This document shows, piece after piece, positions 1 to 14,649 of a stretch of 32,000 bases of DNA; the first letter of the stretch is position 1, and the number at the start of each line of letters is the position of its first letter. Source of the DNA: Acaryochloris marina MBIC11017 (GTDB lineage: Bacteria; Cyanobacteriota; Cyanobacteriia; Thermosynechococcales; Thermosynechococcaceae); contig NC_009925.1 in assembly GCF_000018105.1 (NCBI RefSeq), positions 4,830,001 through 4,862,000 of the forward strand. Reading direction: 5' to 3'. A program made the position numbers and the translations under genes. Under the pieces are notes generated by a model that made no database searches, had not been told where the DNA came from, and was given only the letters and a program-made list of their open reading frames with translations.

Positions 1-2496
1 GGCGTCCCATTCCTTTTGAATGGTGGCTGCTGCCGTCAGGCCATCCATCTCCGGCATATGTACGTCCATCAAAACAATGTCATAGGTTTGGCGCTTTAAG
101 GCTGCTAAGACTTCATGGCCATCATTGGCGACATCAGCGCTATACCCCAGTTGTTTCAGGATCAGTAAGGCGACTTTCTGGTTTACGGCCACATCTTCTG
201 CCAGCAAAATACGTAGGGATGCCGGGCTGACTCGCTCAGGCTCCGGCGGCTGTTCTTCTGGTTCGGCAGGCTCTCCAAAAATATTAGCCAGAACATCATG
301 GAGCCGTGACTGTTGAATCGGTTTGTTTAGGATAGCTGCGAAGTTGATATTCCCCTGCTGTTGAATCAACTCATCTTTGCCCAAAGAACTCAACATCACT
401 AAGGGAAAGTCTGCCAACTGTTCCCGAATCCGCTTGGCCAAGGTTAACCCATCCATTTCTGGCATTTGCATATCCAGAACGGCCAGATCAAACCCATGAT
501 CGGCGGTGAGTAATGCTAGGGCTGCGGCTCCTCCCGGAACGGCCTCGCTGGTCATGCCCCAAGCTTTTGCTTGCAGGGTTAGAATTTTACGGTTAGTGGG
601 ATTGTCGTCCACGATCAGCAGATGCTTGCCATCCAAATGGGCGGGAGAAATGATGGGTCGCTGAGCGGGATCAGCAATGGGGACGGAAATCGTGAAGCAG
701 AAAGAAGACCCTTTGCCCACGTCACTTTCGACCCACATGCGGCCACCCATTAGCTCGCACAGCCGATGACAAATGGCTAACCCTAATCCGGTGCCGCCAT
801 ATTTGCGGGTGGTGGAGGCGTCCACTTGGCTAAAGGATTTGAACAATCGATCCATTCGATCAGCAGGAATGCCGATTCCCGTGTCTTTGACTACAATCTG
901 GAGGATATGGTGACCCTTTCGGACTGGAGCGGCATGATCTGCTGTGACATCTTGAATATAGACCACCACTTCTCCCGTGTCTGTAAATTTGACACCGTTG
1001 GTGAGGAGGTTGACGATAATTTGTCGTAGCCGGGTCACATCCCCGATAATCCATTCGGGAGTATCAGGTTCAAATAGGTACGCCAATTCTAAGGATTTAT
1101 CTACTGCTCTGGGGGCGACGATACGGAGGGCCTGTTCGATACAAATTCGGAGGTCAAAGGGTTGGTTCTCAAATTCCAGTTTGCCTGCTTCTATTTTGGA
1201 GAAATCTAAAATATCGTTAATCAGGCTGAGTAATGCATCCCCACTGCTGCGAATGGTTTCTACAAAGTCAGCCTGTTGCAGATCTAAATCTGTATTCAGA
1301 AGTAGACCGGTCATGCCAATGACGGCATTCATGGGGGTCCGCAACTCATGGCTCATATTGGCTAGAAACTGAGATTTAGCGGTGTTGGCCGTATCAGCGT
1401 CCCGCTTGGCCTGCACGAGGGCCGTATTGTTGCTTTCTAAGGCCTGGCGCTGCTGTTGCTCTTGCTCTAAGAGTTGGGCTTGGGCAATGGCAATGCCCAC
1501 CTGACCCGCCACGGCTTCTAATAGTTCGATGTCTGCTTCGGACCAAGTGCGGTTGCGATCGCACTGATGTAGCACAATCACCCCATTGGCCTGACCCTGA
1601 TAGGAGGTGCGAGTCGCCAGTAGGGACTGGAGCTGTGCCTGCTCACAAAATTGGATTTCTCCCTCGGTCATCTGGTCCCGATCTAGTTCAGGTATGGCCC
1701 ATACGCGATCATGACCAAAGATTTCTGACAGCAGGGGATGATTGCCCATCTCCAGTTCCAGGCAAGAGGCGTAATCCATCTCCAAATACTCCGCCAGATC
1801 AGAGTCTGCTGAAATCTGGGCGGCATAGCTCTGAATAAAGCAGCGATTGGTTTCGAGGGTATAGCCCAACTGGTCAACGGTGGTTTGAAAAATATGCTGG
1901 GTATCAAGGCTGCGGCGAATGTCTTGGGTAATCTGCTCGATGAGTAAGACCCGCTGAATTTGCAGGTTTAAATTCTGGTTGGCGGCTTCTAAGGCGGCAG
2001 TCCGCTCTTGAATCACTTGTTCTTGTTCGGTGGTGAGTTGCTGCAGCTTTTGGTTCATTAACTGCAGTTCTTGGTTCTGCTCTGCGAGTTGCTGATCCGT
2101 CAGATAACTCTGAACCGCAGAGGCAATGGTTAACTTTAAATCGTCTGCCTGCCAGGGTTTGGCGATGTAGCGATAGAGATCGGCATGGGTAACGGCATTT
2201 GCGATCGCATCCACATCTGCTTGCCCCGTCAGCATCACTGTGATCGTCTCCGGGGACTTCTCATGAATGCGCTGGAGAACTTGATCCCCCTTCATGCCGG
2301 GCATGATGTAGTCAGAGATCACCACCGCCACTTCATATTCATCTTCTAGCAGTTCATCCACAATCTCTAGGGCTTCTTCGCCCCCCTGAGCCGTTTCGAT
2401 GGCGCAGTCCTGGCCAATGGATTTCCGTAATTCGATTTTGAGGGACTCTAGAACAGTAGATTCGTCATCTACACAGAGGATAAAAGGCTTACTCAT
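1..2496 (-). CDS. Hybrid sensor histidine kinase/response regulator, C-terminus cut by the window edge (REC - coiled coil - GAF-like - HisKA - HATPase_c - REC - REC)
   Basis: Missing from the ORF track because no stop codon lies in the window. My manual minus-strand translation from the ATG at 2496-2494 stays open for all 832 codons down to position 1. Motifs read directly: N-terminal receiver [12 protein letters not shown]...[13 protein letters not shown]...IAKPW; H-box [16 protein letters not shown] (about 1320-1370); [17 protein letters not shown] and GGTGLGLAI; two C-terminal receivers ([11 protein letters not shown]...[13 protein letters not shown] and [11 protein letters not shown]...[13 protein letters not shown]). 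The start overlaps the upstream receiver gene's stop (ATGA at 2493-2496). Confidence 0.88.
1555..1562. repeat. HIP1 octamer GCGATCGC
   Basis: Exact match read in sequence. Confidence 0.95.
2201..2208. repeat. HIP1 octamer GCGATCGC
   Basis: Exact match read in sequence. Confidence 0.95.
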
Positions 2497-2891
2497 AGCG
2501 CTTCCAGATTTGACTTCAGCAGTTCAATTAATTCGCTTTTGCGCCAGGGCTTATGGATAAACCGATGGAGATCGGCCTCTTCCTTGGCCCGTTCAATCGC
2601 TGAGTGATCCGCCTGCCCAGAGAGCATGATTTTGATGATATTGGGATGATCTTGATGAAGTTTGACGAAAAATTCGTCTCCCTTCATCCCTGGCATGAGC
2701 CAATCACACAGCACCAAAACTACCTCAACGCCATCTTCCTGCAGCTCCTCCACAATTTCTAATGCTTCGTTGGCATTGATGGCTGCTTCTACATTGCAGA
2801 GGTCACTCAGCTCTTTTTTAATCTGTATTTTGAGACTGTCTAAAATAACTTTTTCATCATCTACACATAAAACGACGGGCTTAACCATCAC
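2493..2891 (-). CDS. Single-domain CheY-like response regulator (receiver only)
   Basis: 132-aa ORF. Acidic pocket VLCVDDE, phospho-acceptor context [14 protein letters not shown], and MLSGQAD plus KPW near the C-terminus. The track start at 2891 is GTG; the ATG one codon downstream (2888) is the more likely start. The stop overlaps the next gene's ATG. Confidence 0.9.
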
Positions 2892-2930: not shown

Positions 2931-4487
2931 CTAAGTCAGGGGGATAGACACGGTAAATTGGGTTTTCCCAGGTTCAGATACCACGGAAATATCGCCCTCA
3001 TGTTTCTTCACGATCTTATGGACAATATCGAGGCCCAAACCGCTGCCTTCTCCAGGGGGCTTGGTGGTGAAGAACGGTTGGAATATTTTGGGCATCACTT
3101 CTGCGGGGATTCCCTGACCGCTGTCGGCAATTTTGACCTGGACCTGATTCTCATGGTGCTGGACATCCAGGGTTAAGGTGCCTTGATAATCCATGGCCTG
3201 CAGGGCGTTATGAATCAGATTGGTCCAGACCTGGCTCAGCTCATCGTGGAAACAGGACACCGATGGAATGGGATCATAATTGCGAATGACCTCGACCCCA
3301 TTTTTAAGCTGACTCTGGTAAAGGGTTAAAACCGTTTCAATATCGTAGATAAGGTTGGTGGGGGACTTTTGGCCGGTATGGTCAAAGTGAGAATAGCTCT
3401 TCAGGGCAAAGACGACTTTGGCTGCTTTGTCCGTGGCAGTTTTGATGGTCTTAGTGCTGTTTAACAAGGTTGAAAACTGATAGGCCATATCCAAGGTCTG
3501 GCGTCCTTCTGCAGACTGCAGTCGGGGGACGATGGCCTCGATCTCTTCTAGATAATTCAGCTCCGCTAAGGTATCCGCCACGTCATCCGCCTGATCAATC
3601 CCTTCCGCTTCTAGCATGCGGATATTTCCCCGCTTCAGCTTGCGCTTTTCGCGACTGCTCAAGATCACCAGATCCTGGTTGGCGGAATCCAACAATTCTG
3701 AAAATAATTGTTGGCAATCTCCCGTTAGAGCCTGGAAAAAGGTGGGGAGTGCCCCTAAATTGCGTTCTAAAAAGTCAGAAATATTTTCTACTGAGGATCG
3801 GATTGCCCCCAGGGGAGTATTGATTTCATGGGCGATCCCGGCAATCAACTGACCTAAAGAGGCCATCTTCTCCGATTGAATCAGTTGCTCCTGGGTGGTC
3901 TCTAATTGCTTAAGAGTTGCCTGCAAATTGTGGTTCTTCTCCTGGACCATCTGCAAGGTTTGCTCTAATTCCACTTGCTTGGCTGCTAACTCTTCTGCCA
4001 TGTGGGTAGTGTCAGACAGGGCGGTGGACCGAGCCTGGAGCAGATAGAGAAAATCTGAAGTCGGTTCATGGGTAGCAAAATCCTTCAGTTTGACCCCATA
4101 GCCTTTGAGATCGGAGAGGTCTGTGACCCAGAGAGAGCCGATGAAAAATATCACATCTTCGGACTCAATGGGCATCAACTGGCCCTTCAACTGGAATCCC
4201 CGGTGAATCGATTCGATTAAAAACAGTTTTTTCGACTTTTTCAGCAGGGCATCAAACTCCAACGCTACTTTTGGACGCTGGATCTGAAAAAAATCATCTA
4301 CCTGTCCGCCCATCAGCCCCTCAGGAGCAATGCGTTGCAGCACCTTGCCCGCTTGCAAAATCTCTAAGTTGCGATTGAAGACAAAATGGAAGGGAAAAAC
4401 CTTGGCAAAACACTCGGGGGGTAAACTGCGCTCGATCCCATTAGTGGAAAGGACACTTGACTCTGTACTTAACTGAGAACTGATCAT
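2931..4487 (-). CDS. HNOBA-domain sensor histidine kinase (H-NOX-associated kinase)
   Basis: 518-aa ORF. The N-terminal ~190 aa contain FAKVFPFHFVFNRNLEILQAGKVLQRI, which resembles the HNOBA domain of soluble guanylate cyclases (PF07701). A coiled coil follows (ELEQTLQMVQEKNHNLQATLKQLETTQEQL). The H-box is SEKMASLGQLIAGIAHEINTPLGAI, and the ATPase boxes are LIHNALQAM, DSGQGIP and GEGSGLGL. The only in-frame ATG overlaps the H-NOX gene's 3' end by 47 nt. Confidence 0.88.
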   Translation of the reverse strand: MISSQLSTESSVLSTNGIERSLPPECFAKVFPFHFVFNRNLEILQAGKVLQRIAPEGLMGGQVDDFFQIQRPKVALEFDALLKKSKKLFLIESIHRGFQLKGQLMPIESEDVIFFIGSLWVTDLSDLKGYGVKLKDFATHEPTSDFLYLLQARSTALSDTTHMAEELAAKQVELEQTLQMVQEKNHNLQATLKQLETTQEQLIQSEKMASLGQLIAGIAHEINTPLGAIRSSVENISDFLERNLGALPTFFQALTGDCQQLFSELLDSANQDLVILSSREKRKLKRGNIRMLEAEGIDQADDVADTLAELNYLEEIEAIVPRLQSAEGRQTLDMAYQFSTLLNSTKTIKTATDKAAKVVFALKSYSHFDHTGQKSPTNLIYDIETVLTLYQSQLKNGVEVIRNYDPIPSVSCFHDELSQVWTNLIHNALQAMDYQGTLTLDVQHHENQVQVKIADSGQGIPAEVMPKIFQPFFTTKPPGEGSGLGLDIVHKIVKKHEGDISVVSEPGKTQFTVSIPLT

Positions 4488-5004
4488 GGTCGGCGCCCTC
4501 CTCGCGGCTGTGGGTCTGGTTGATATCTACCTCTGTTTCAAATCGTTCCCCCAGCCCTTCTACCAATCCCATGACCATGGGGGCTAGTCCATCTCGCTCC
4601 GAGTGATAATGCAGGGTTAATTCTTCCTCATCCGCTTCATCGCAGTCAAAGGATGGGGGCTTCAACTTGGGAAACATCACCCCGACTCGGGCATGAAGAT
4701 CATCCAGATTCTCCAGGAACTCAGGTAAATCTTCCCCATTCATTTCCATTAGCTCTCCATACCCTTCTTGGGCGGTGAACTGAACCCAATACTTACCGAA
4801 GGCATGCATAACGTCTGCAGGAGAGAGCTCCAATACTTCGCTAGCGGCTCCCACCAACCGGTAGGTCAACTCATCGGGGTAGCCTTCCATGCTGATAAAG
4901 GCTTCCGTTTTGATCTCAGCTTTTTGTTTGATCGCCTCCCAGGTTGCATCATTAAAATGGCTGCGCACCATCTTTTCGATGGCTTTATTGACTAGGCCAT
5001 ACAT
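4441..5004 (-). CDS. H-NOX (haem-nitric oxide/oxygen binding, HNOB) sensor protein
   Basis: 187-aa ORF starting MYGLVNKAIE. Candidate proximal haem ligand His104 in NLDDLHARV. Haem-propionate Y-x-S-x-R motif as YHSER (aa 133-137). Prolines in KLKPPSF. No Trp9 of the Trp9/Asn74/Tyr140 distal triad seen in O2-binding H-NOX. A GGGAGG Shine-Dalgarno-like sequence ends 4 nt upstream of the ATG on the minus strand. Confidence 0.92.
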   Translation of the reverse strand: MYGLVNKAIEKMVRSHFNDATWEAIKQKAEIKTEAFISMEGYPDELTYRLVGAASEVLELSPADVMHAFGKYWVQFTAQEGYGELMEMNGEDLPEFLENLDDLHARVGVMFPKLKPPSFDCDEADEEELTLHYHSERDGLAPMVMGLVEGLGERFETEVDINQTHSREEGADHDQFSVKYRVKCPFH

Positions 5005-5680
5005 GAGAGCCTCCCTAACGATCTAAATTTCAACAGTTCTAGGGTTCCCAATCCACAAAACATGTTCCACAGGGGGTTTGTTTTTGGATTTTTATCTTTG
5101 AAAGGACTAATAATGCCCTGATCCTGGCTAAAAAATAATCAAAAGTTGGGGTAATTTTTTAGGAATATTTGCTGAAGATAATAATTTCTAGGCCAGCAGA
5201 GCGCCTCTATCTCGAAAACTAGATTTATTTGAAGCAGAAAGAATATATGTCTAGGGCTATGAGTATTCAGAAATCAATAATTAGCCTTTCTTTATTTATT
5301 ATTAATAATGAATTAATGATAGAATTATAGTATTCATTTTTTAACAAAAACTAAATGATTTATTCTGAAAATAATCAAATTTAAGAACTTAAAGCATGCG
5401 TGTAATCACTCAAAAAAACCTTATCTATAGGTGTTTTCGTGCATTAAAGTTACGTGTTTACACTGATGCGACACCTAGATAGACCTAATATTCTCTGATT
5501 TATCGTTAAAGACTAATTCAGTTTTATCGATAAATTGACCCAGTCAAAATCACCTGAAAATTCTCCCAAAAAGATATTAATGAGTCGCTGATGATATTTT
5601 TTCGTCACAAGTAATTGGAGATAATTCCCCATATGCATTAATATCTATCTCTTTGGCGAAAGAGTATTTAAAAGTGATAT

Positions 5681-5707
5681 TTCTACATATAGTGTAACTA
5701 TGTAGAA
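5681..5707. promoter_or_regulatory. Perfect 9-bp inverted repeat within the long AT-rich spacer
   Basis: ttctacata (5681-5689) and tatgtagaa (5699-5707) are separated by 9 nt. It could be a protein-binding site or an RNA hairpin; the function is unknown. Confidence 0.3.
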
Positions 5708-5969
5708 AATATTTTCCATGTCAAAAATAGTGAAATATCTTTTTTTGAAATAATTCAGTCGAATAGTTAACAACGTCAGGCGGTTATTGGTTAATGGCTA
5801 ATGCTAAACAGGATCAAAAAAGTGGGGATAATTCCCTATTTACTCATGTCTTCTTATCTCTATCTGAAGTAAAAGCAGATTGCAGATTTATGCCAAATTT
5901 TCGCTAAAAAGAAGTGTTCTCTAACCTTTCGTTTATGTTGTTAATCCATTTAGAACCCAAGAGGAATTC

Positions 5970-6737
5970 ATGATTACGGCCAATAAACAAGTCACCCAAG
6001 CTCTGTACAACGATACAGCGGCTCGATGGGTTCGAGGTGGACCCAGCTCGCTGTCTGACTTCACAGCACGTCCCGCCATTTTGGAGATGTGTGCACCAGT
6101 TACAGAGCAAAAGATTCTGGATCTCGGATGTGGTGAAGGGTACTGTAGCCGTCAACTCCGACAGCTCGGTGCAGCATCCGTTTTAGGCGTCGACCTCTCC
6201 CAGAGGATGATTGAAGCCGCCCAGGCCCAAGAAGTACAAGAGTCTTTGGGGATTACCTATCAGGTGGGATGTGCCACGGACGTTCGGCATTACACCCAAG
6301 ACAAGTTTGATTTAGTGGTGGCTGTTTTCTTGTTTAACTACCTAACGGTTGCCCAAACTCAGGCTTGCATGGCAGAAATTTTTCAGGTGCTGGAACCTGG
6401 CGGGCGGTTTATCTTTAGCATCCCCCACCCTGCTTTTCCCTATATGCGCCAAGCTGAGTTTCCCTTTTATTTCGAAGTGGATGGCAATAACTACTTCAGT
6501 GGACGGGACCAACAATGTCCAGGGCGCATTTGGAAGCGCGATGGTTCCTGGTTAGACGTCCAGCTGATTCACAAAACGATTCAAGATTTCTTTGAAGCGC
6601 TGCAAATGGCTGGTTTTACAAGCATGCCGACTGTGCGTGAATTACGAGTCTTACCTGAACATGTCGAACTTGATCCAGATTTTTTCGGACCGTTAGTTGA
6701 TTACCCCTTACATATGGCGATTGAGGTGCACAAATGA
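5970..6737 (+). CDS. Class I SAM-dependent methyltransferase
   Basis: 255-aa ORF with glycine-rich SAM motif I (ILDLGCGEGYCS), acidic motif II (VLGVDLS), and DLVVAVFLFNYL with LEPGGRFIFS. AAGAGGA lies 7 nt upstream of the ATG. The stop overlaps the next gene's start (ATGA at 6734-6737). Confidence 0.88.
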   Translation: MITANKQVTQALYNDTAARWVRGGPSSLSDFTARPAILEMCAPVTEQKILDLGCGEGYCSRQLRQLGAASVLGVDLSQRMIEAAQAQEVQESLGITYQVGCATDVRHYTQDKFDLVVAVFLFNYLTVAQTQACMAEIFQVLEPGGRFIFSIPHPAFPYMRQAEFPFYFEVDGNNYFSGRDQQCPGRIWKRDGSWLDVQLIHKTIQDFFEALQMAGFTSMPTVRELRVLPEHVELDPDFFGPLVDYPLHMAIEVHK

Positions 6738-7444
6738 AAACGATTACTGCCTACTCTATGGATTCCTATCGCAGATTGACCATGCGGCACCCCTTGTGGA
6801 AGCACCCTTTCCTAGAGCAATGCCGGTCTGGAGAGCTGACTTTGGCCGAAGTGCGTGTTTTAGCGGTACAGATGTACAAGTTTTCCCAATCCTTTAATCG
6901 CATCCTGGCGGGCATTATGTCTTGTTGCCCCGATGAGAATGCCCAAATGGTGATTATGGAAAATCTCTTGGATGAAATGGGGCAGGGCGATTTGACTCAT
7001 GCTCATCCAGAATTATTTCGGCGGTTTACCCGGTCTTTAGGGATTGATGATGGGACATTACAAATGACTCCCCCGGAGCCGGAAACCCAGGCCATGATTG
7101 ATACGTACCTTGCTCTGCCCCATAAGTATGGTTATTTAGCAGCAGTGGGAGCCGTTTGCTTTGCATCAGAAGGAATTGTGAATTCCCTATATACCCAAAT
7201 TCGCCAAGGCATTGTCGGGGTATCTCCTTTCTCATCGGAAGCGTTGAGCTTTTTCGAAGTGCATATAGATCTCGATGATGACCATGCTGCTCATTTAGAA
7301 GCGCTGATCGAACCCCGATTAAAAACGGTGGAAGACTCCCTCTATTTGAATCGAGCGATCAAGAAAGCGATGGATTCGCGACTGAAATTCTTTAATGGTA
7401 TTCAGCGTGCTTCTGAAGCTGTGTCTTATGCTTGGGCGGCCTAA
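6734..7444 (+). CDS. Haem-oxygenase-like diiron enzyme (iron-containing redox enzyme family, CADD/PqqC-like fold)
   Basis: 236-aa ORF. Candidate carboxylate/His ligand pattern: NLLDEMGQGDLTHAHPELF (E81, H89/H91), CFASEGIV (E146) and FFEVHIDLDDDHAAH (H177-x3-D181-x2-H184). The spacing matches what I recall for CADD-type haem-oxygenase-like diiron oxidases. Translationally coupled to the methyltransferase. Confidence 0.8.
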   Translation: MKTITAYSMDSYRRLTMRHPLWKHPFLEQCRSGELTLAEVRVLAVQMYKFSQSFNRILAGIMSCCPDENAQMVIMENLLDEMGQGDLTHAHPELFRRFTRSLGIDDGTLQMTPPEPETQAMIDTYLALPHKYGYLAAVGAVCFASEGIVNSLYTQIRQGIVGVSPFSSEALSFFEVHIDLDDDHAAHLEALIEPRLKTVEDSLYLNRAIKKAMDSRLKFFNGIQRASEAVSYAWAA

Positions 7445-7481
7445 TGATGCTCTTGCCCTGAGCAAGGGTGTATGTTTTGCA

Positions 7482-7502
7482 GAGCCTCATCCCATGAGGC
7501 TC
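7482..7502 (+). other. Perfect 9-bp stem / 3-nt loop hairpin between the diiron-enzyme and TauD-like genes
   Basis: gagcctcat (7482-7490), loop ccc, atgaggctc (7494-7502). There is no U-tract after it, so it is not a classic terminator. It may be an RNA stability or processing element. Confidence 0.4.
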
Positions 7503-7541
7503 CAAATACCTAGCAAATGCTAGATACGACGAAGATAAGCG

Positions 7542-8660
7542 TTGCCATCGGCCTCAATTCTGTACCTGCCCCCTACGTTGCCTGTCGATTCGATCGTTAT
7601 TGTTATGTCACTCCTTACTCGTATGGGTCATATCGAAGACTTATCTTCGGTGATGATCAAGGCTAAGTCACAGCCAAGCTGGACTAGTGCAGGTTTAGAA
7701 ACCAATTCTCACTGGAGAATTACGCTCCCAGAGTCTATATTGTCCTCAACTTTAGTGTTGCATCACTGGTTGGAGGCGAGGGGATATACCTGGCAGTCGC
7801 CTGAAGCAAGGGGGATGAGAATTCAGAATCTTGATCTTCTGGCGAATGTGATGCGTTATCATCTCACCCAAACCACGGGCGTTGTCTTATTGTCTGGGTT
7901 TGATGTCGCTGAATACGGTGAGTCTGCAAGTCGACTGCTCCTGCTGCAGCTGGGCTATGTATTAGGGTCTGTGTTAGATAAACGTGGACTGTTGTATGAC
8001 GTCTGCGATCGCGGCCAGGATCACCGGCAAGCCAATGTTCTCTTTTCCAGTACCTGTACGTCGCCTGGGTACCACACAGACAGCACGGATGCAGACCTGA
8101 TGCCCGGTATTGTATCTTTGCTTTGTTTGCGAACGGCTCGCGAGGGAGGTGTCAACCGCCTAGCCAATACCCTGACTGCCTATCAGCGACTGCTTCGATC
8201 TCAACCCGAGGTGTTACGACGGCTTTGCGAGCCATTTATTCGCGACAAAATCATTGTCGGTGAGGTTGGCACCCGCTCCCACCTCGATCGATTACGAAAT
8301 GCGTTCCCAGTGTTTGAGTGGGGCCGCTGGTATCCAGGGCTGACCTGTCGGTATATGCGCTATTGGATAGAGGCGGGCCACGATAAGGCGGGATTACCTC
8401 TATCGGAGGAGGATCTATTTGTATTGGATCAATTTGAGGCGACCCTCAATCAAGAGGACATTACCTATCAACTTCAGCTCCAACCGGGTGACATGATTTT
8501 TCTGAATAATCACCTGATTGCTCACGACCGCACGGAGTATCTAGATTGGGAAGAGCCAGAAAAGAAGCGACATCTAGTTCGCATGTGGGTTGGGAATGAT
8601 GCGCTTCAGCGTCATGCTTCCAAACCAGATGATATGAAGCTGAACCATCTCTACGGCTAA
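7542..8660 (+). CDS. TauD/TfdA-family Fe(II)/2-oxoglutarate-dependent dioxygenase
   Basis: Facial-triad H-x-D in SPGYHTDSTD, distal His in NNHLIAHDRTEY, and a conserved Arg context in KRHLVRMWV. Overall layout fits PF02668. The track start at 7542 is TTG; the ATG at 7605 (MSLLTRMGH...) or 7623 is more plausible, so the 5' end is uncertain. Confidence 0.82.
   Translation: MPSASILYLPPTLPVDSIVIVMSLLTRMGHIEDLSSVMIKAKSQPSWTSAGLETNSHWRITLPESILSSTLVLHHWLEARGYTWQSPEARGMRIQNLDLLANVMRYHLTQTTGVVLLSGFDVAEYGESASRLLLLQLGYVLGSVLDKRGLLYDVCDRGQDHRQANVLFSSTCTSPGYHTDSTDADLMPGIVSLLCLRTAREGGVNRLANTLTAYQRLLRSQPEVLRRLCEPFIRDKIIVGEVGTRSHLDRLRNAFPVFEWGRWYPGLTCRYMRYWIEAGHDKAGLPLSEEDLFVLDQFEATLNQEDITYQLQLQPGDMIFLNNHLIAHDRTEYLDWEEPEKKRHLVRMWVGNDALQRHASKPDDMKLNHLYG
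8005..8012. repeat. HIP1 octamer GCGATCGC
   Basis: Exact match read in sequence. Confidence 0.95.
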
Positions 8661-8710
8661 ATATTGGGTGTAAGTTAAGTGGGGTTGAGAAGATTTTTAC
8701 AGCCCTACTG

Positions 8711-10402
8711 TTAATCATTCCATTGGGCAATCAACGTGTAAGCTTTTCGCAATTCCTCGGCGAGTGGCTCGGCAAAATCGCTAATCTTCTTATCGTTAGA
8801 CCAGGAGGATGTGATTCGCTGGGCGCGCGGCTTCTTGCGTAAGGATGATGGTGCAGCAGATAGACTCTCTGCATCGAGGTAGTTTTCGATAGTACTTATC
8901 TGTTCATCCTTCTCTGGATACCACAAACCAATGTTCTGTCCCTTTGCCTCCGCCTTCTCGAACTCTGTCTTGATAAAGGTCTTTGCAGCCTGAAACTTCG
9001 ATTTATCCTTCAATTTTCCGTCTGACCCGCGAACTGCATCACTGTCAATCACTACTAGAGCATTTCTAGAGAAGCGGAACATCGCGACAAGTTTCTCCAA
9101 CGCTGCTGTATCTGAAAGGCTGTCTTCTGAAAGAGAAATGCTATCTAGTAGGGAACCCCCATACATTTGAAAATCAAAGTGAATGCCAGGCACGAGCAGT
9201 GGGAGGTTCTTTTCAATTGCATACATCTTGAGCCATTTGCGGATGTAGATGCAATCAGAAGGTCCTTCTACCCAAATGACCCCATTAGTTTGAAGGAGAT
9301 CCGAGCCTTTAGCTCCTAATCCATCGAGGAGAGAACTGGGCATCCCAGTAGCTTCCCGAACTGTAGTGAAACAGGCAATGTACTGTTCAAGAGGCTTAAC
9401 AGGTCCATTTTCTGAAAATCGGTAACGAGTCACCTCTGTCTCATTAGATGAGAACTCAAAAATAGCAGCCGTTTCTTCAAGCTCAATCGCTAAATTAATT
9501 AGTACTGGTGAGTGAGACGCTACAAATATTTGGCTGAGCCAAGAAATGTGCTGCTGCGTAGGAGGGACTATCCTGAATTTGTCACCTTCACTGGGCCATT
9601 TGGTATCCAAGATTGACTGGACTTGGCAAAATGCTTCTTCTTCTTTTGTTGTCCTGTCTTGCTTTCCTCTGACCATAAGCCAAAATATAAAAGTAAAAAG
9701 GCGTCTTATCACACGAGGTTCAAGGTGAAGCTCTGGCTCATCGAATAAAAGGACTGGCTTTCCATTCCTACGAAGAATAGAGGTTATTAGCTTCGCGCAC
9801 TCGCGGACACCCGATGGCAGAGCTGATGGCTCGATCTCGTCAGGACCACTAGGATGCATCCGTCCTTGGGTAAATCGGCCGTTCTTATAGAAGGTGAAGT
9901 GTGCCCCGAAAATAAAAAAGAGCCCAAAATTTAAGAGTGGTAAAGCCGATTCAGCGCGATGAGTAATATCCGTGAGATCCTTCATAAATTGAAGGTCGTT
10001 TGGGATGTTAACAAGATGGGTTTTTAACGAAAACCCCTGCACATCTCCGTGGATGTAGCGCCACACTGGATTTTTCACGTCATACTCAAACAAGATCTCT
10101 TTGTCTAAGGTAGGACCGTCCAGTTCATCTACTTGGGAATACCCGATTCTGAGTATGCCAGAGATATTGGTATCTTGGGACCCAAGGTTATCTGCCAAAT
10201 TGAAGGGAATCTCTGGTTGGTATAGATCTATACTTTTAGCAATTTTACGATAGTTGAACTGCAGTCCGTCGATGATACGAAGCAGATTCGTCTTGCCAGT
10301 CCCATTTGGGCCGATGAGAATATTGAACTGCTTAAGTGGGCCGACTACCTGCCTGGGACCGAACGTAAACAGTCTTCCCAACTCGATTTGCTTGATTTTC
10401 AT
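8711..10402 (-). CDS. ABC/SMC-like ATPase fused to a Toprim-type nuclease domain (OLD-family or fused AriA-AriB/PARIS-like); candidate defence protein
   Basis: 563-aa ORF. N-terminus MKIKQIELGRLFTF plus Walker A GPNGTGKT (aa 31-38). About 180 aa are inserted before a signature-like LPSGVRE (aa 195-201). Walker B VLLFDEPELHLEP (D221/E222). H-loop VASHSP (H297). The C-terminal half has VIWVEGPSD (E379, D383), VVIDSD (D453/D455) and STIENYL (E506), consistent with a Toprim/DUF4435 metal site. Confidence 0.8.
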   Translation of the reverse strand: MKIKQIELGRLFTFGPRQVVGPLKQFNILIGPNGTGKTNLLRIIDGLQFNYRKIAKSIDLYQPEIPFNLADNLGSQDTNISGILRIGYSQVDELDGPTLDKEILFEYDVKNPVWRYIHGDVQGFSLKTHLVNIPNDLQFMKDLTDITHRAESALPLLNFGLFFIFGAHFTFYKNGRFTQGRMHPSGPDEIEPSALPSGVRECAKLITSILRRNGKPVLLFDEPELHLEPRVIRRLFTFIFWLMVRGKQDRTTKEEEAFCQVQSILDTKWPSEGDKFRIVPPTQQHISWLSQIFVASHSPVLINLAIELEETAAIFEFSSNETEVTRYRFSENGPVKPLEQYIACFTTVREATGMPSSLLDGLGAKGSDLLQTNGVIWVEGPSDCIYIRKWLKMYAIEKNLPLLVPGIHFDFQMYGGSLLDSISLSEDSLSDTAALEKLVAMFRFSRNALVVIDSDAVRGSDGKLKDKSKFQAAKTFIKTEFEKAEAKGQNIGLWYPEKDEQISTIENYLDAESLSAAPSSLRKKPRAQRITSSWSNDKKISDFAEPLAEELRKAYTLIAQWND

Positions 10403-11676: not shown

Positions 11677-12417
11677 CTACCAAGCCATCAACACCTGGCG
11701 TTGTTCCCACAGCATCATGATGCCGCTGACTGCAATAAAGATAAACGTGACTTGTTTAAAAAGGTCGTTACTCATTTTGCTGAGCACCCATTGACCTAAC
11801 CAATTGGCAGGAAATGCCGCCGCCCCAATCACCACGCCATAAATGACATATTCTCTGTTCAGGTTACCTAAGGATGCATAAGCGCACAGCTTAATCACAT
11901 GGGCCAAAATAATATTGGCCGCTTTCGTCGCCACCATTGCTTCCTTTAGCAGTCCGTAATTAATATAGGCCGGGTTCATAATCGGTCCCGTACTGCCAAT
12001 TAGGCCTGAAGCAAAGGAATTCCCAAATCCTAAAGGCAAAAATTGCCAGGTCTTGAGGGTAAAGGTACTTTCCTGATTGCCAAACCAATAGTTCGCCACC
12101 ATCAACAATAAAGAGATGCCGATGACGAACTGCAGCCATTCTAAATTGATGTAGTTCAGGGTAAAGGCCCCCAGAATTGAGCCAACAATCACCCCCGGTA
12201 GCTGCCATAGGGTGACTTCCCACTCAATATCTTCCCAAAAATAAAAGAGTCGCTGGATATTTCCTAACAGCATCCCCGTTGTAATCACGGGAGCAACTGC
12301 CTGGGCACCGTACATAAAACTGACCAGTGGAATCAGCATTAAGGGGCTGCCGCCACCCGCCACCATGCTGATAAACCAGGACAGGAAACTCACCACTCCC
12401 AAAACGACAAAGGGCAT
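11677..12417 (-). CDS. TSUP (TauE/SafE, DUF81) family anion-exporter-like membrane protein
   Basis: 246-aa polytopic hydrophobic ORF. The N-terminal helix contains VAGGGSPLMLIPL, and the two halves show the internal repeat architecture typical of TauE/SafE. Confidence 0.82.
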   Translation of the reverse strand: MPFVVLGVVSFLSWFISMVAGGGSPLMLIPLVSFMYGAQAVAPVITTGMLLGNIQRLFYFWEDIEWEVTLWQLPGVIVGSILGAFTLNYINLEWLQFVIGISLLLMVANYWFGNQESTFTLKTWQFLPLGFGNSFASGLIGSTGPIMNPAYINYGLLKEAMVATKAANIILAHVIKLCAYASLGNLNREYVIYGVVIGAAAFPANWLGQWVLSKMSNDLFKQVTFIFIAVSGIMMLWEQRQVLMAW

Positions 12418-12507
12418 GGAGTTGAAGCCTTAAATGAACCGCAACCTGATTTTAACCCTTTATTAACTTTTGTTGTTGCAATATCGGTGCTTCTCTTGCA
12501 GGTCAGT

Positions 12508-13764
12508 CTACTGGGGAGATTGCTGCTCTAAAAACTTAGCTACGGTTTGGACATCTTTATCGCCCCGACCCGAACAGGAAATAACAATCCGGGGACTGCC
12601 TTCTAGCTGGGGACAGAGGGTTTCCAGATATGCGATCGCATGACTCGTTTCCAGGGCCGGAATAATCCCTTCCAGTTCCGTTAGTCGCTGAAAGGCCGCA
12701 ACAGCCTCTGTATCCGTGACGCTGTAATATTCACAGCGGCCACTATCCTTAAGAAAACTATGCTCAGGGCCCACGCCAGGATAATCCAGTCCCGCACTAA
12801 TAGAATGGGCCTCTAACACCTGACCATCTTCATCTTGTAGCAGATAACTCATGGCCCCGTGCAGCACCCCAGCTTCCCCTTGGGTGAGCGTGGCTGCATG
12901 TTTATCAGTATTAACGCCAGCGCCAGCGGCCTCCACACCAATCATGCGGATTTGAGTATCAGGCACAAACTCATGAAATAAACCCATCGCATTTGACCCA
13001 CCCCCCACGCAGGCGAGCAAGATATCGGGGGTACCATTCCATTGCTCTTGGCATTGCTGGCGAGTCTCTTGGCCAATCACGGCATGGAAATCTCGCACCA
13101 TCATTGGATAGGGGTGGGGACCAGCCACAGAACCCAAAATATAGTGGGTGGTTTCTACGTTAGTCACCCAGTCGCGAATGGCTTCCGAGGTGGCATCCTT
13201 AAGGGTTCCTGTTCCCGCTTCCACCGGATGAACTTCTGCCCCTAATAGCCGCATCCGAAATACATTGAGGGCCTGACGTTCCATATCCTGGACCCCCATA
13301 TAAATCACACAGTCAAAGCCAAAGCGGGCACAGACAGTTGCTGTTGCCACCCCATGCTGTCCAGCGCCCGTTTCAGCAATAATTCGCTGTTTGCCCATCC
13401 GCTTAGCGAGCAAGGCTTGAGCGAGGGCATTGTTGATTTTATGGGCTCCTGTATGGTTAAGGTCTTCTCGCTTTAAATAGATCTGGGGACCACTGCCATC
13501 GGGACGGGCATAGTGGGTGGTTAGCCGCTCGGCAAAATACAGGGGGCTAGGCCGACCTACATAGTCTTTGAGCAGTTGGCTGAGTTCTGCCTGAAACTCT
13601 GGATCGTTTCGGTACTGGGCGAGGGCAGATTCCAGTTCTGCCAGGGCAGGCATCAGAGTTTCGGGGACATATTTCCCACCGTAGGGACCAAAGCGACCCA
13701 AGGCATCAGGATATTGTTGTGCGCCAGAGGATTGGTCAGCAGAGGATAGGGGAGTAACAGCCAC
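12508..13764 (-). CDS. trpB: Tryptophan synthase beta chain
   Basis: 418-aa ORF. PLP-lysine motif [30 protein letters not shown], and N-terminal [19 protein letters not shown]. The start is GTG at 13764-13762. Confidence 0.96.
12632..12639. repeat. HIP1 octamer GCGATCGC
   Basis: Exact match read in sequence. Confidence 0.95.
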
Positions 13765-14094
13765 GATGAATACCCAAACAGATGATCAGACACTCATTAT
13801 AGAAAAAGATGGTGTGTCGCTGGATGATTCTTCATGCGTAGTCGACCTATCGACTTGGAAGTTTAGCAAAGGGACCTATTATTCTTGGCTGCATCGCGAA
13901 CTGTGTGGTTGGAAATTATGTATGGTGAGCTGGGTATCAAGGTCCTAGGCCCTTTATCCTAATGGCAAGCTGGCAATATGTTCCGGCATCAAGCCTTGGA
14001 TTCTGTGATGCAGGCAGGCTGATAGATTTACGCTCTCAAGCAATTGTTTGAGCCCTTATGACTGGTATATTCGTTCGCTTTGTAATTAATACTG

Positions 14095-14649
14095 ATGCCC
14101 ATTGTTAATAAAGCAGCTCCATTAATTATTGAGATTCCCAATATTTTGACATTCAAAGAATGTGATGAATTAATGGGGAAGATCAATCAGCTTAACCCTA
14201 GTCTGGCAACGGTTCGTAATGATGGAGAGGCCGAGATTAATACCAATGTACGCAATAATGAGCGAGTTGTTTTCAGCGATTTCTCCCTTGCAGAGAAATT
14301 ATTTTTAAAGGCACAAGAGTACGTCCCGCCAACAATGCAGGGAAGAATCTTGTTGAGCGCTAATGAACGCTTTAGATGCTATCGATATAAAGTTGGCATG
14401 AAATTTAGCCCTCATTATGATGGCTCACTTGAACGGAATGGAAATGAAAAGAGTTATTACTCATTTCTGGTCTACTTAAACGATGATTTTGAAGGTGGAC
14501 AAACAAATTTCCTAACCGAGTCAATATGCTCAATTACGCCTCGAAAGGGTTTTGGTCTTTTGTTTCAGCATCTCATCCTTCATGAGGGGGTTGAGGTATC
14601 TAGAGGTGTGAAATATGTAGCAAGAACAGACTTAATGTATCAGAGGTAA
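14095..14649 (+). CDS. Small 2OG-Fe(II) oxygenase, prolyl 4-hydroxylase-like
   Basis: 184-aa ORF. H-x-D in FSPHYDGS, distal His in FQHLILHEG, basic 2OG-binding residue context in RGVKYVARTDL, and YLNDDFEGGQTNF typical of P4Hc-type enzymes. The gene looks clearly more AT-rich than the neighbouring trpB. Confidence 0.8.
   Translation: MPIVNKAAPLIIEIPNILTFKECDELMGKINQLNPSLATVRNDGEAEINTNVRNNERVVFSDFSLAEKLFLKAQEYVPPTMQGRILLSANERFRCYRYKVGMKFSPHYDGSLERNGNEKSYYSFLVYLNDDFEGGQTNFLTESICSITPRKGFGLLFQHLILHEGVEVSRGVKYVARTDLMYQR

Follow-up and report, generated by a model that had tools for sequence, protein, structure and literature searches.

Do three neighbouring genes of the cyanobacterium Acaryochloris marina MBIC11017, which encode a methyltransferase (MT), a haem-oxygenase-like dimetal oxidase (HDO) and a TauD/TfdA-family Fe(II)/2-oxoglutarate (Fe/2OG) dioxygenase, form a single pathway, and if so, what does that pathway serve? 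The genes lie in a stretch of 32,000 nucleotides (contig NC_009925.1, positions 4,830,001 to 4,862,000; hereafter the window), and an earlier interpretation made from the letters alone (the sequence-only reading) had called them an orphan cassette. The HDOs form a young superfamily, and nearly all of its characterised members have, to our knowledge, turned out to perform new chemistry. With a probability of roughly 65%, we consider that the three genes constitute one catalytically competent small-molecule oxidation pathway that acts as the enzymatic part of a sensory system.

The three open reading frames (ORFs) are all on the plus strand, at 5970-6737, 6734-7444 and 7542-8660, where the sequence-only reading had placed them, and they specify 255, 236 and 372 amino acids, the third when read from a TTG codon. 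The domain families proposed for their products agree with our Pfam assignments. The ATGA reported at 6734-6737 is present in the sequence (...CACAAATGAAAACG), such that the TGA stop codon of the MT gene overlaps the ATG start codon of the HDO gene, and the HDO is translationally coupled to the MT by this overlap. For the TauD-like gene the most likely start is the ATG at 7605 (7605..8660, plus strand), although the open frame reaches up to the TTG at 7542, because the predicted product of 351 amino acids fits NCBI-annotated orthologues of 349-351 amino acids. The gap between the HDO and TauD-like genes is therefore 160 nt, at the upper end of the ~100-160 nt estimated before. The closest named relatives are Acaryochloris metagenome-assembled genomes (82-89% identity). 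None of the three proteins attains any NCBIfam equivalog cut-off, and a DNA search for a plasmid origin gave no match.

Evidence that the three enzymes belong together comes from natural fusion proteins. An exhaustive phmmer search with the MT, against a library clustered at 50% identity, recovered 91 representative clusters at E ≤ 1e-30, among which 38 MT-family representatives are at least 420 amino acids long. These long representatives comprise 16 HDO-MT-TauD, 9 HDO-MT and 8 MT-TauD fusions among other forms, and the HDO-MT-TauD fusions are single proteins of ~1000 amino acids. The fused MT domains are 31-49% identical to the window MT by BLASTP and up to 53% by phmmer, and the fused TauD domains are 27-41% identical to the window TauD-like protein, with E-values down to 3e-58. 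Sources include the cyanobacteria Microseira sp. BLCC-F43 and Brasilonema angustatum, the diplonemid Lacrimia lanifica, the red alga Pyropia yezoensis (KAK1865775.1) and the diatom Thalassiosira exigua (KAL7549535.1), and these named fusions carry hypothetical or generic annotations only. Two tandem genes for TspO/MBR (tetrapyrrole-binding) proteins follow the EF-hand-HDO-MT-TauD gene in Brasilonema (L088/L089, locus positions 12873-13953), and HcyBio, AI-2E transporter and ion-channel genes neighbour the Microseira fusion (L090).

Regulatory domains are also joined to these enzymes. Some fusions carry N-terminal EF-hand pairs, and in one protein (P0141) an MT with 57-58% identity to the window MT is joined to a receiver domain; this receiver shares 29% identity with the window response regulator described below, a generic similarity only. 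The catalytic residues of both oxygenases are kept in stand-alone, operonic and fused forms. Because of the fusions and of this conservation in every form, the MT, HDO and TauD-like protein are predicted from sequence to form a real functional unit whose enzymes act together. The earlier idea that they do so is thus backed by fusions, by operons and by recurrence across lineages.

The description of the cassette as an orphan does not hold, since genes for a haem-based sensory system adjoin it divergently. A stand-alone H-NOX haem sensor is encoded on the minus strand at 4441..5004 (PF07700, 3.9e-56) and is an orthologue of Nostoc Alr2278, matching the PDB entry for Alr2278 at 5.5e-69 and that for soluble guanylate cyclase beta-1 at 2.6e-37. 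Alr2278 is a cyanobacterial H-NOX that is used to model the structure of the haem domain of soluble guanylate cyclase. Overlapping the H-NOX gene is that of a histidine kinase with HNOBA (PF07701, 8.3e-33), HisKA and HATPase_c domains (2931..4487, minus strand), and downstream of the kinase gene is that of a single-domain response regulator (2493..2891, minus strand; PF00072, 8e-19). By their domains, the H-NOX and the adjacent HNOBA kinase are assigned to the H-NOX-associated two-component systems, and NO binding, regulation of the kinase and control of MT-HDO are predicted. The H-NOX/HnoK two-component systems of Shewanella and Vibrio and the Nostoc Alr2278 system likewise comprise a stand-alone H-NOX with a kinase and a response regulator. 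The outputs of known systems are c-di-GMP enzymes or quorum-sensing kinases (PMC8846402), whereas an MT-HDO metabolic partner is not described for them in the searchable literature. The minus strand of the window has no listed ORF before the response regulator gene (1-2490); this region probably holds a long gene running off the window edge. Another locus, L081, has the same kinase-response regulator arrangement and, at the equivalent position, a gene for an 897-amino-acid hybrid kinase (RR-GAF-HisKA-HATPase-RR, where RR is a response regulator domain), which suggests a multi-step phosphorelay.

The sensor genes accompany the enzyme genes over a wide range of organisms. Our sample comprised 8 genome loci and 69 metagenome loci with HDO relatives, plus Nostoc loci; dereplication at 95% HDO identity gave 61 clusters, and counts were made only over loci with enough flank. 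The MT gene is directly upstream of the HDO gene in 63/64 loci (51/52 dereplicated), and an H-NOX gene lies within 5 kb of MT-HDO in 38/41 (30/33 dereplicated), with the HNOBA kinase co-conserved beside it. This link persists in no fewer than five gene orders and in two clades, whose GC contents are 35-53% and 63-73%. Acaryochloris-type loci all contain the trio and share the window's layout, with the kinase and H-NOX genes diverging from MT, HDO and TauD. Other cyanobacteria, whose HDO is ~60% identical, have a co-directional order of MT, HDO, H-NOX and kinase, as in the Nostoc loci L078-L080, and the Nostoc loci carry an Alr2278-type H-NOX. The GC-rich clade (63-73% GC, from soil and rhizosphere; HDO ~50% identical) displays three gene orders, always with H-NOX and histidine kinase, and has a gene of the DHDPS/DapA family directly after HDO in 27/31 loci. 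Across dereplicated loci, a DapA-like gene is found in 10 of 33. This DapA-like aldolase, which scores below all equivalog cut-offs and has a generic DHDPS/NanA-family resemblance only, replaces the TauD-like member in the GC-rich soil bacteria.

The core of the cassette is the MT-HDO pair, and of all members the MT, which anchors the module, is the best conserved. MTs of other cyanobacteria are 61-68% identical to the window protein, those of the GC-rich clade 52-58% and that of Indioceanicola 53%. The pair also occurs in further settings. In Calothrix membranacea and Nostoc linckia (L003 and L004), a DapA/DHDPS-like gene precedes MT-HDO (locus positions 6003-6890), and an unrelated histidine kinase (29% identity) is encoded downstream on the opposite strand, with no H-NOX. 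Overlapping genes of Indioceanicola profundi (NZ_CP030127.1, record positions 87265-88820; L093, locus positions 7174-8729) encode an HDO of 265 amino acids and an MT of 252 amino acids (53% identity). Genes for FlgK, a flagellin-like protein and a glycosyltransferase lie on one side of this pair, and genes for a TylF-type O-methyltransferase and a DegT/EryC1 aminotransferase on the other, so that flagellin glycosylation is possibly a third context.

A third member, the TauD-like gene, is optional: it occurs in Acaryochloris-type loci, in fusions and in a few operons. Its family is rare, with 19 homologues in a database of 5.8 billion proteins; ~10 close ones from the Acaryochloris lineage share 69-90% identity, and the best of the others reaches 39%. 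The gene for this 39% homologue (P0131) lies on a contig (JGI 3300047160) on which H-NOX, HDO (310 amino acids), MT, FIST/FIST_C and SpoIIE/PP2C phosphatase genes are followed by those of a response regulator and the TauD-like protein. Two genes of NO-sensor type, H-NOX and FIST/FIST_C, thus flank the HDO-MT pair; FIST-FIST_C is the architecture of the NO sensor NosP (PMC8846402). Two homologues at 35% are encoded in a tight HDO-MT-TauD operon on a metagenome contig (P0133, L084) and in an MT-TauD pair whose genes are 2 nt apart (P0134, L082), and the MTs of both loci are 46-48% identical to the window MT over their full length. A homologue at 31% (P0135) has unrelated surroundings (SDR, GSP_synth) and was left out of the co-occurrence. 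The trio therefore recurs in other genomes, as the sequence-only reading had proposed to check: in Acaryochloris-type loci, in other lineages and gene orders, and as single-chain fusions.

Is the HDO equipped for catalysis? The protein (6734..7444, plus strand; 236 amino acids) matches Haem_oxygenas_2 (PF14518) at 3.1e-27, with 95.9 bits against a cut-off of 28.9. The metal ligands had been proposed as E81, H89 or H91, E146, H177, D181 and H184; six of these residues (E81, H91, E146, H177, D181 and H184) are invariant among 120 orthologues, whereas H89 is not conserved, and H91 is therefore taken as the ligand. Among 21 diverse relatives five ligands are fully kept, and H184 is present in 19. 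They align one to one with E81, H88, E142, H174, D178 and H181 of the Chlamydia enzyme CADD. The possibility that the protein loses its metal ligands, as a TenA-like protein or a plain PqqC would, is thus answered by the conservation of all six. With this complete set of three histidines and three carboxylates the HDO is predicted to be a dimetal enzyme, and metal binding and O2 activation are expected of it. Within its family it belongs to a short, H-NOX-linked subfamily.

An AlphaFold2 model of the HDO (predicted local distance difference test, pLDDT, 86.6; predicted template-modelling score, pTM, 0.85) finds CADD first in a Foldseek ranking (template-modelling score, TM, 0.78/0.86; 24% identity), followed by HrmI, PqqC, BesC, UndA and FlcD. 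CADD is also the best sequence match among PDB entries, and BesC and HrmI are significant matches (1.6e-7 and 1.9e-7, 20-26% identity), while SznF is absent from the sequence matches at E ≤ 1. Equivalence with two named families was rejected on score: the HDO attains 42 bits against the NCBIfam BesC cut-off of 500, and 17 bits against the PqqC cut-off of 240. The window protein, moreover, has a full dimetal ligand set, unlike the cofactor-less PqqC.

The TauD-like protein is similarly intact. It matches PF02668 at 3.5e-29 (103 bits against 27), and H178-T-D180, H328 and R343 (numbering of the 372-amino-acid ORF), which correspond to the HTD...H...R motif noticed earlier, are shared by no fewer than 90% of 28 diverse relatives; an RYMRxWxE motif is also conserved. 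Its AlphaFold2 model (pLDDT 87.4) has its closest structures, at TM ~0.6, among TtnM, FrbJ, BBOX, AsnO, CmnC/VioC, TmpA and lysine hydroxylases, with TtnM, FrbJ and BBOX as the top matches. The TtnM structure is PDB 7n7v according to the Foldseek description; a literature search on the identity of this entry returned nothing. By its Pfam score, HxD...H triad, 2-oxoglutarate-binding arginine and fold, the protein is a member of the TauD/TfdA family. Its best PDB sequence match is the phosphonate hydroxylase FrbJ. The TmpA, gamma-butyrobetaine dioxygenase and trimethyllysine dioxygenase equivalogs were rejected at 37, 35 and 33 bits against cut-offs of 400, 415 and 268, even though TmpA is the best NCBIfam match. 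The TmpA/TmpB and PhnY*/PhnZ systems resemble the cassette in combining an Fe/2OG hydroxylase with an O2-activating diiron enzyme, which in those systems act one after the other; however, TmpB and PhnZ are HD-domain proteins rather than HDOs, and no phosphonate genes lie near the window set.

The MT (5970..6737, plus strand; 255 amino acids) matches Methyltransf_25/11 at 2.5e-22, and its Rossmann-type domain and glycine-rich S-adenosylmethionine (SAM) motif, LDLGCGEGY, predict a class I SAM-dependent methyltransferase. The closest PDB entries are 3bkw (function unknown), ToxA and phosphoethanolamine N-methyltransferase. No NCBIfam equivalog is attained, the best being CpaM at 62 bits against a cut-off of 180.

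These components can be arranged into a putative pathway. In the step order that we infer, the MT would methylate a small polar metabolite; the HDO, with its dimetal centre and O2, would then oxidise it by N-oxygenation, C-C cleavage or desaturation; and the TauD-like Fe/2OG enzyme, where present, would add a hydroxylation-type step. MT-HDO would be the obligatory core, and TauD-like or DapA-like enzymes would supply lineage-specific third steps. Since lysine, arginine, trimethylammonium or phosphonate substrates are used by the nearest relatives of these enzymes, the substrate might, with low confidence, be an amino-acid-like compound that bears an amine; the nearest HDOs, BesC and HrmI, act on lysine derivatives. 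The product made or processed by the enzyme set is probably a signalling-related small molecule, and possibly an NO-related one.

In the window, this pathway would be divergently coupled to a relay running from H-NOX through the HNOBA kinase to the response regulator. The regulatory inputs fused or adjacent to the enzymes across the family comprise H-NOX with HNOBA kinase and response regulator, a NosP-type FIST-FIST_C protein, a receiver domain and EF-hand pairs. Because receiver and EF-hand domains are fused directly to the enzyme elsewhere, the enzyme appears to be a regulated output. By analogy with those fusions, control of MT-HDO(-TauD) most likely falls to the H-NOX phosphorelay, and the haem sensor, responding to NO or redox, would thereby control production of the metabolite; EF-hands (through Ca2+) or the fused receiver may control the fused versions in the same manner.

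Several observations weigh against this interpretation. Only 4 of 33 dereplicated loci contain TauD, and most H-NOX-linked loci are without it. Conversely, no H-NOX gene lies near the cyanobacterial fusion genes, and H-NOX is missing from L003, L004 and L029 and from the HDO-MT locus of Indioceanicola profundi NZ_CP030127.1. Most TauD-linked HDOs carry an insertion of ~18 residues between E81 and H91 and are 22-31% identical to the window HDO; because of this low identity and the insertion, the chemistry of TauD-linked HDOs elsewhere may differ from that of the window enzyme. The window TauD gene is situated behind two hairpins and may be expressed separately. Finally, with respect to its link with the enzymes, the H-NOX may be a regulator or a ligand-sensing partner.

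The hairpins lie directly beyond the HDO gene. Immediately after its stop codon is a terminator-like hairpin with a T-rich tail (7447..7471, plus strand), which is followed by the hairpin previously reported at 7482..7502 (plus strand), a perfect 9-bp stem with a 3-nt loop, GAGCCTCAT-CCC-ATGAGGCTC. Folded together the two give −26 kcal/mol (z = −3.1). A strong hairpin follows the HDO stop codon in 6/6 Acaryochloris-type loci, at the same position and with different stem sequences, which suggests that it is a terminator or attenuator. The TauD gene may therefore be expressed separately or at another level, and the doubt raised earlier about a single transcript is reasonable, given that a position-conserved hairpin separates the two genes. 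On the other side of the enzyme genes, the divergent intergenic region between H-NOX and MT (5005..5969) is 965 bp long with 31% GC, against ~48% for the window, and is presumably a shared promoter and regulatory region. The corresponding spacers of Acaryochloris-type loci are similar in length (955-1059 bp) and composition (31-33% GC), with sequence identity of only 48-66%; a comparison of five such loci showed no strongly conserved block. An Rfam scan of the whole window gave no matches.

The main rival to regulation by H-NOX reverses the direction of the link: MT-HDO(-TauD) would make NO, another haem ligand or an NO donor (an N-hydroxy, N-nitroso or nitro compound) that is sensed by the adjacent H-NOX. 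This is unlikely in our estimation, even though HDO-MT is consistently adjacent to H-NOX and lies between H-NOX and the NosP-type FIST protein on the P0131 contig. SznE, an N-methyltransferase, and SznF, an HDO with a cupin, build an N-nitrosourea. The combination of methyltransferase, HDO and mononuclear-iron beta-barrel in that short, partly fused streptozotocin pathway parallels the present one (for SznF, PMC13133933), although the barrel here is 2-oxoglutarate-dependent and of TauD type rather than a cupin. N-oxygenases among characterised HDOs include SznF, RohS and HrmI (PMC13133933, PMC13108848), and HrmI is the second structural match of the window HDO. However, only SznF and RohS, both N-oxygenases, are reported to have a seventh glutamate ligand, from auxiliary helix alpha-2 (PMC13133933), and no invariant Asp or Glu that could correspond to it is evident at residues 37-63 of the HDO, as judged from a sequence alignment. 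The fusion genes and the Indioceanicola locus, moreover, lack H-NOX, and regulation would explain an operon with a sensor just as well. An extension of the same idea, in which HDO-MT(-TauD) is a signal-controlled producer of NO, an NO donor or another haem-ligand metabolite that is distinct from NO synthase (NOS), is also improbable. It is similarly doubtful that the bacterial form of such a producer is wired to H-NOX or NosP and that the EF-hand fusions of red algae, diatoms, diplonemids and some cyanobacteria, which would make the enzyme Ca2+-gated, are its Ca2+-activated form. Pairs of an HDO and an Fe/2OG enzyme are known, too, from the hormaomycin, belactosin and beta-ethynylserine pathways. 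Natural-product pairs of this kind (PMC13108848) raise the prospect that an HrmI/HrmJ- or BesC/BesD-like pair, together with an MT, makes a secreted modified amino acid unrelated to the sensor. BesC and HrmI are indeed among the best PDB matches of the HDO, the structures that Foldseek finds nearest to the TauD-like enzyme are those of amino-acid hydroxylases, and in both HrmI/HrmJ and BesC/BesD/BesE an HDO operates alongside an Fe/2OG oxygenase on lysine derivatives. We nonetheless doubt such tailoring. The Fe/2OG partner here resembles TauD, FrbJ and TtnM rather than a halogenase or cyclopropanase; the MT is obligatory; the family is widespread among cyanobacteria, with vertical conservation at ~60% identity; and its links go to H-NOX, receiver, EF-hand and FIST parts, not to biosynthetic genes or a non-ribosomal peptide synthetase (NRPS) cluster. 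As stated in the sequence-only reading, no NRPS or polyketide synthase (PKS) is encoded nearby, and the window contains no NRPS, PKS, ligase or nearby exporter.

Two further explanations concern single members of the set. The TauD-like gene could be a chance neighbour, a separately transcribed lineage-specific insertion beside a real MT-HDO unit, as its rarity among dereplicated loci (4/33), the two hairpins and 160-nt gap before it and the variable slot behind it would allow. The closest relatives of this protein outside Acaryochloris are nevertheless fused or operonic with MT and HDO, and the fusions largely refute this explanation, making it very improbable. The HDO itself could be a self-sacrificial p-aminobenzoate synthase of CADD type, or a PqqC/TenA-type protein. 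It shares with CADD (CT610, the Chlamydia p-aminobenzoate synthase) and NePabS the seven-helix HDO fold, a similar size and identical ligand positions; CADD is its best match in both sequence and structure; it scores 93 bits with TIGR04305; and databases name its family PqqC or TenA. CADD, however, uses up its own Tyr27 and Lys152 in making p-aminobenzoate (PMC9522330, PMC13108848), and these residues are replaced by an invariant Leu27 and by Ile156 (Leu in most orthologues). The scores fall short of the cut-offs (93 against 200 bits for TIGR04305, 17 against 240 for PqqC), identity to CADD is 24%, the ligand set is that of a dimetal enzyme rather than of PqqC, and the neighbours are an obligatory MT, H-NOX and a kinase instead of folate or pyrroloquinoline quinone genes. 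We regard this last possibility as scarcely credible. Regulation by H-NOX of a joint MT-HDO(-TauD) pathway is therefore the interpretation that we prefer.

Beyond the TauD-like gene, a minus-strand gene at 8711-10402 encodes a 563-amino-acid AAA_21 ATPase that matches the PADLOC model of AriA (PARIS; 1.4e-78) and ATPase-Toprim models. This AriA-like ATPase is absent from orthologous Acaryochloris-type loci, and the corresponding slot in L081 holds a PemK toxin pair, so that the slot looks like a variable insertion site for defence and toxin-antitoxin genes. Farther along, ~3 kb past the TauD-like gene, hemB is followed by a TauE/SafE sulfite-exporter family gene and a gene for a pyridoxal-phosphate-dependent (PALP) enzyme (11677-13764, minus strand). 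About 5.5 kb downstream, at 14095-14649 (plus strand), is a gene for a prolyl-hydroxylase-like 2OG-Fe(II) oxygenase of 184 amino acids (PF13640) that appears unrelated.

The sequence-only reading had not recognised the trio as a characterised cluster, and indeed no pathway or publication in the searchable literature matches it; nor did we find there a description of the family, its MT partnership, the tri-domain fusions or the H-NOX link. What is known comprises the superfamilies themselves, pairs of HDO and Fe/2OG enzymes, and H-NOX two-component systems. What appears to be new is an HDO family in which the MT is obligatory, with tri-domain fusions and a link to H-NOX. The analysis thus defines a large and conserved HDO/MT/Fe-2OG family, whose fusions show joint action. 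For cyanobacteria, the MT-HDO genes are a concrete candidate for the output, or the ligand source, of the Alr2278-type H-NOX. The algal and diatom fusions with EF-hands hint at a Ca2+-controlled small-molecule synthase that is widespread in phototrophs. Ca2+-dependent ‘NOS-like’ activity has reportedly been observed in diatoms and other organisms that lack NOS, and if the enzymes did prove to be a non-NOS producer, they would be a candidate for this activity.

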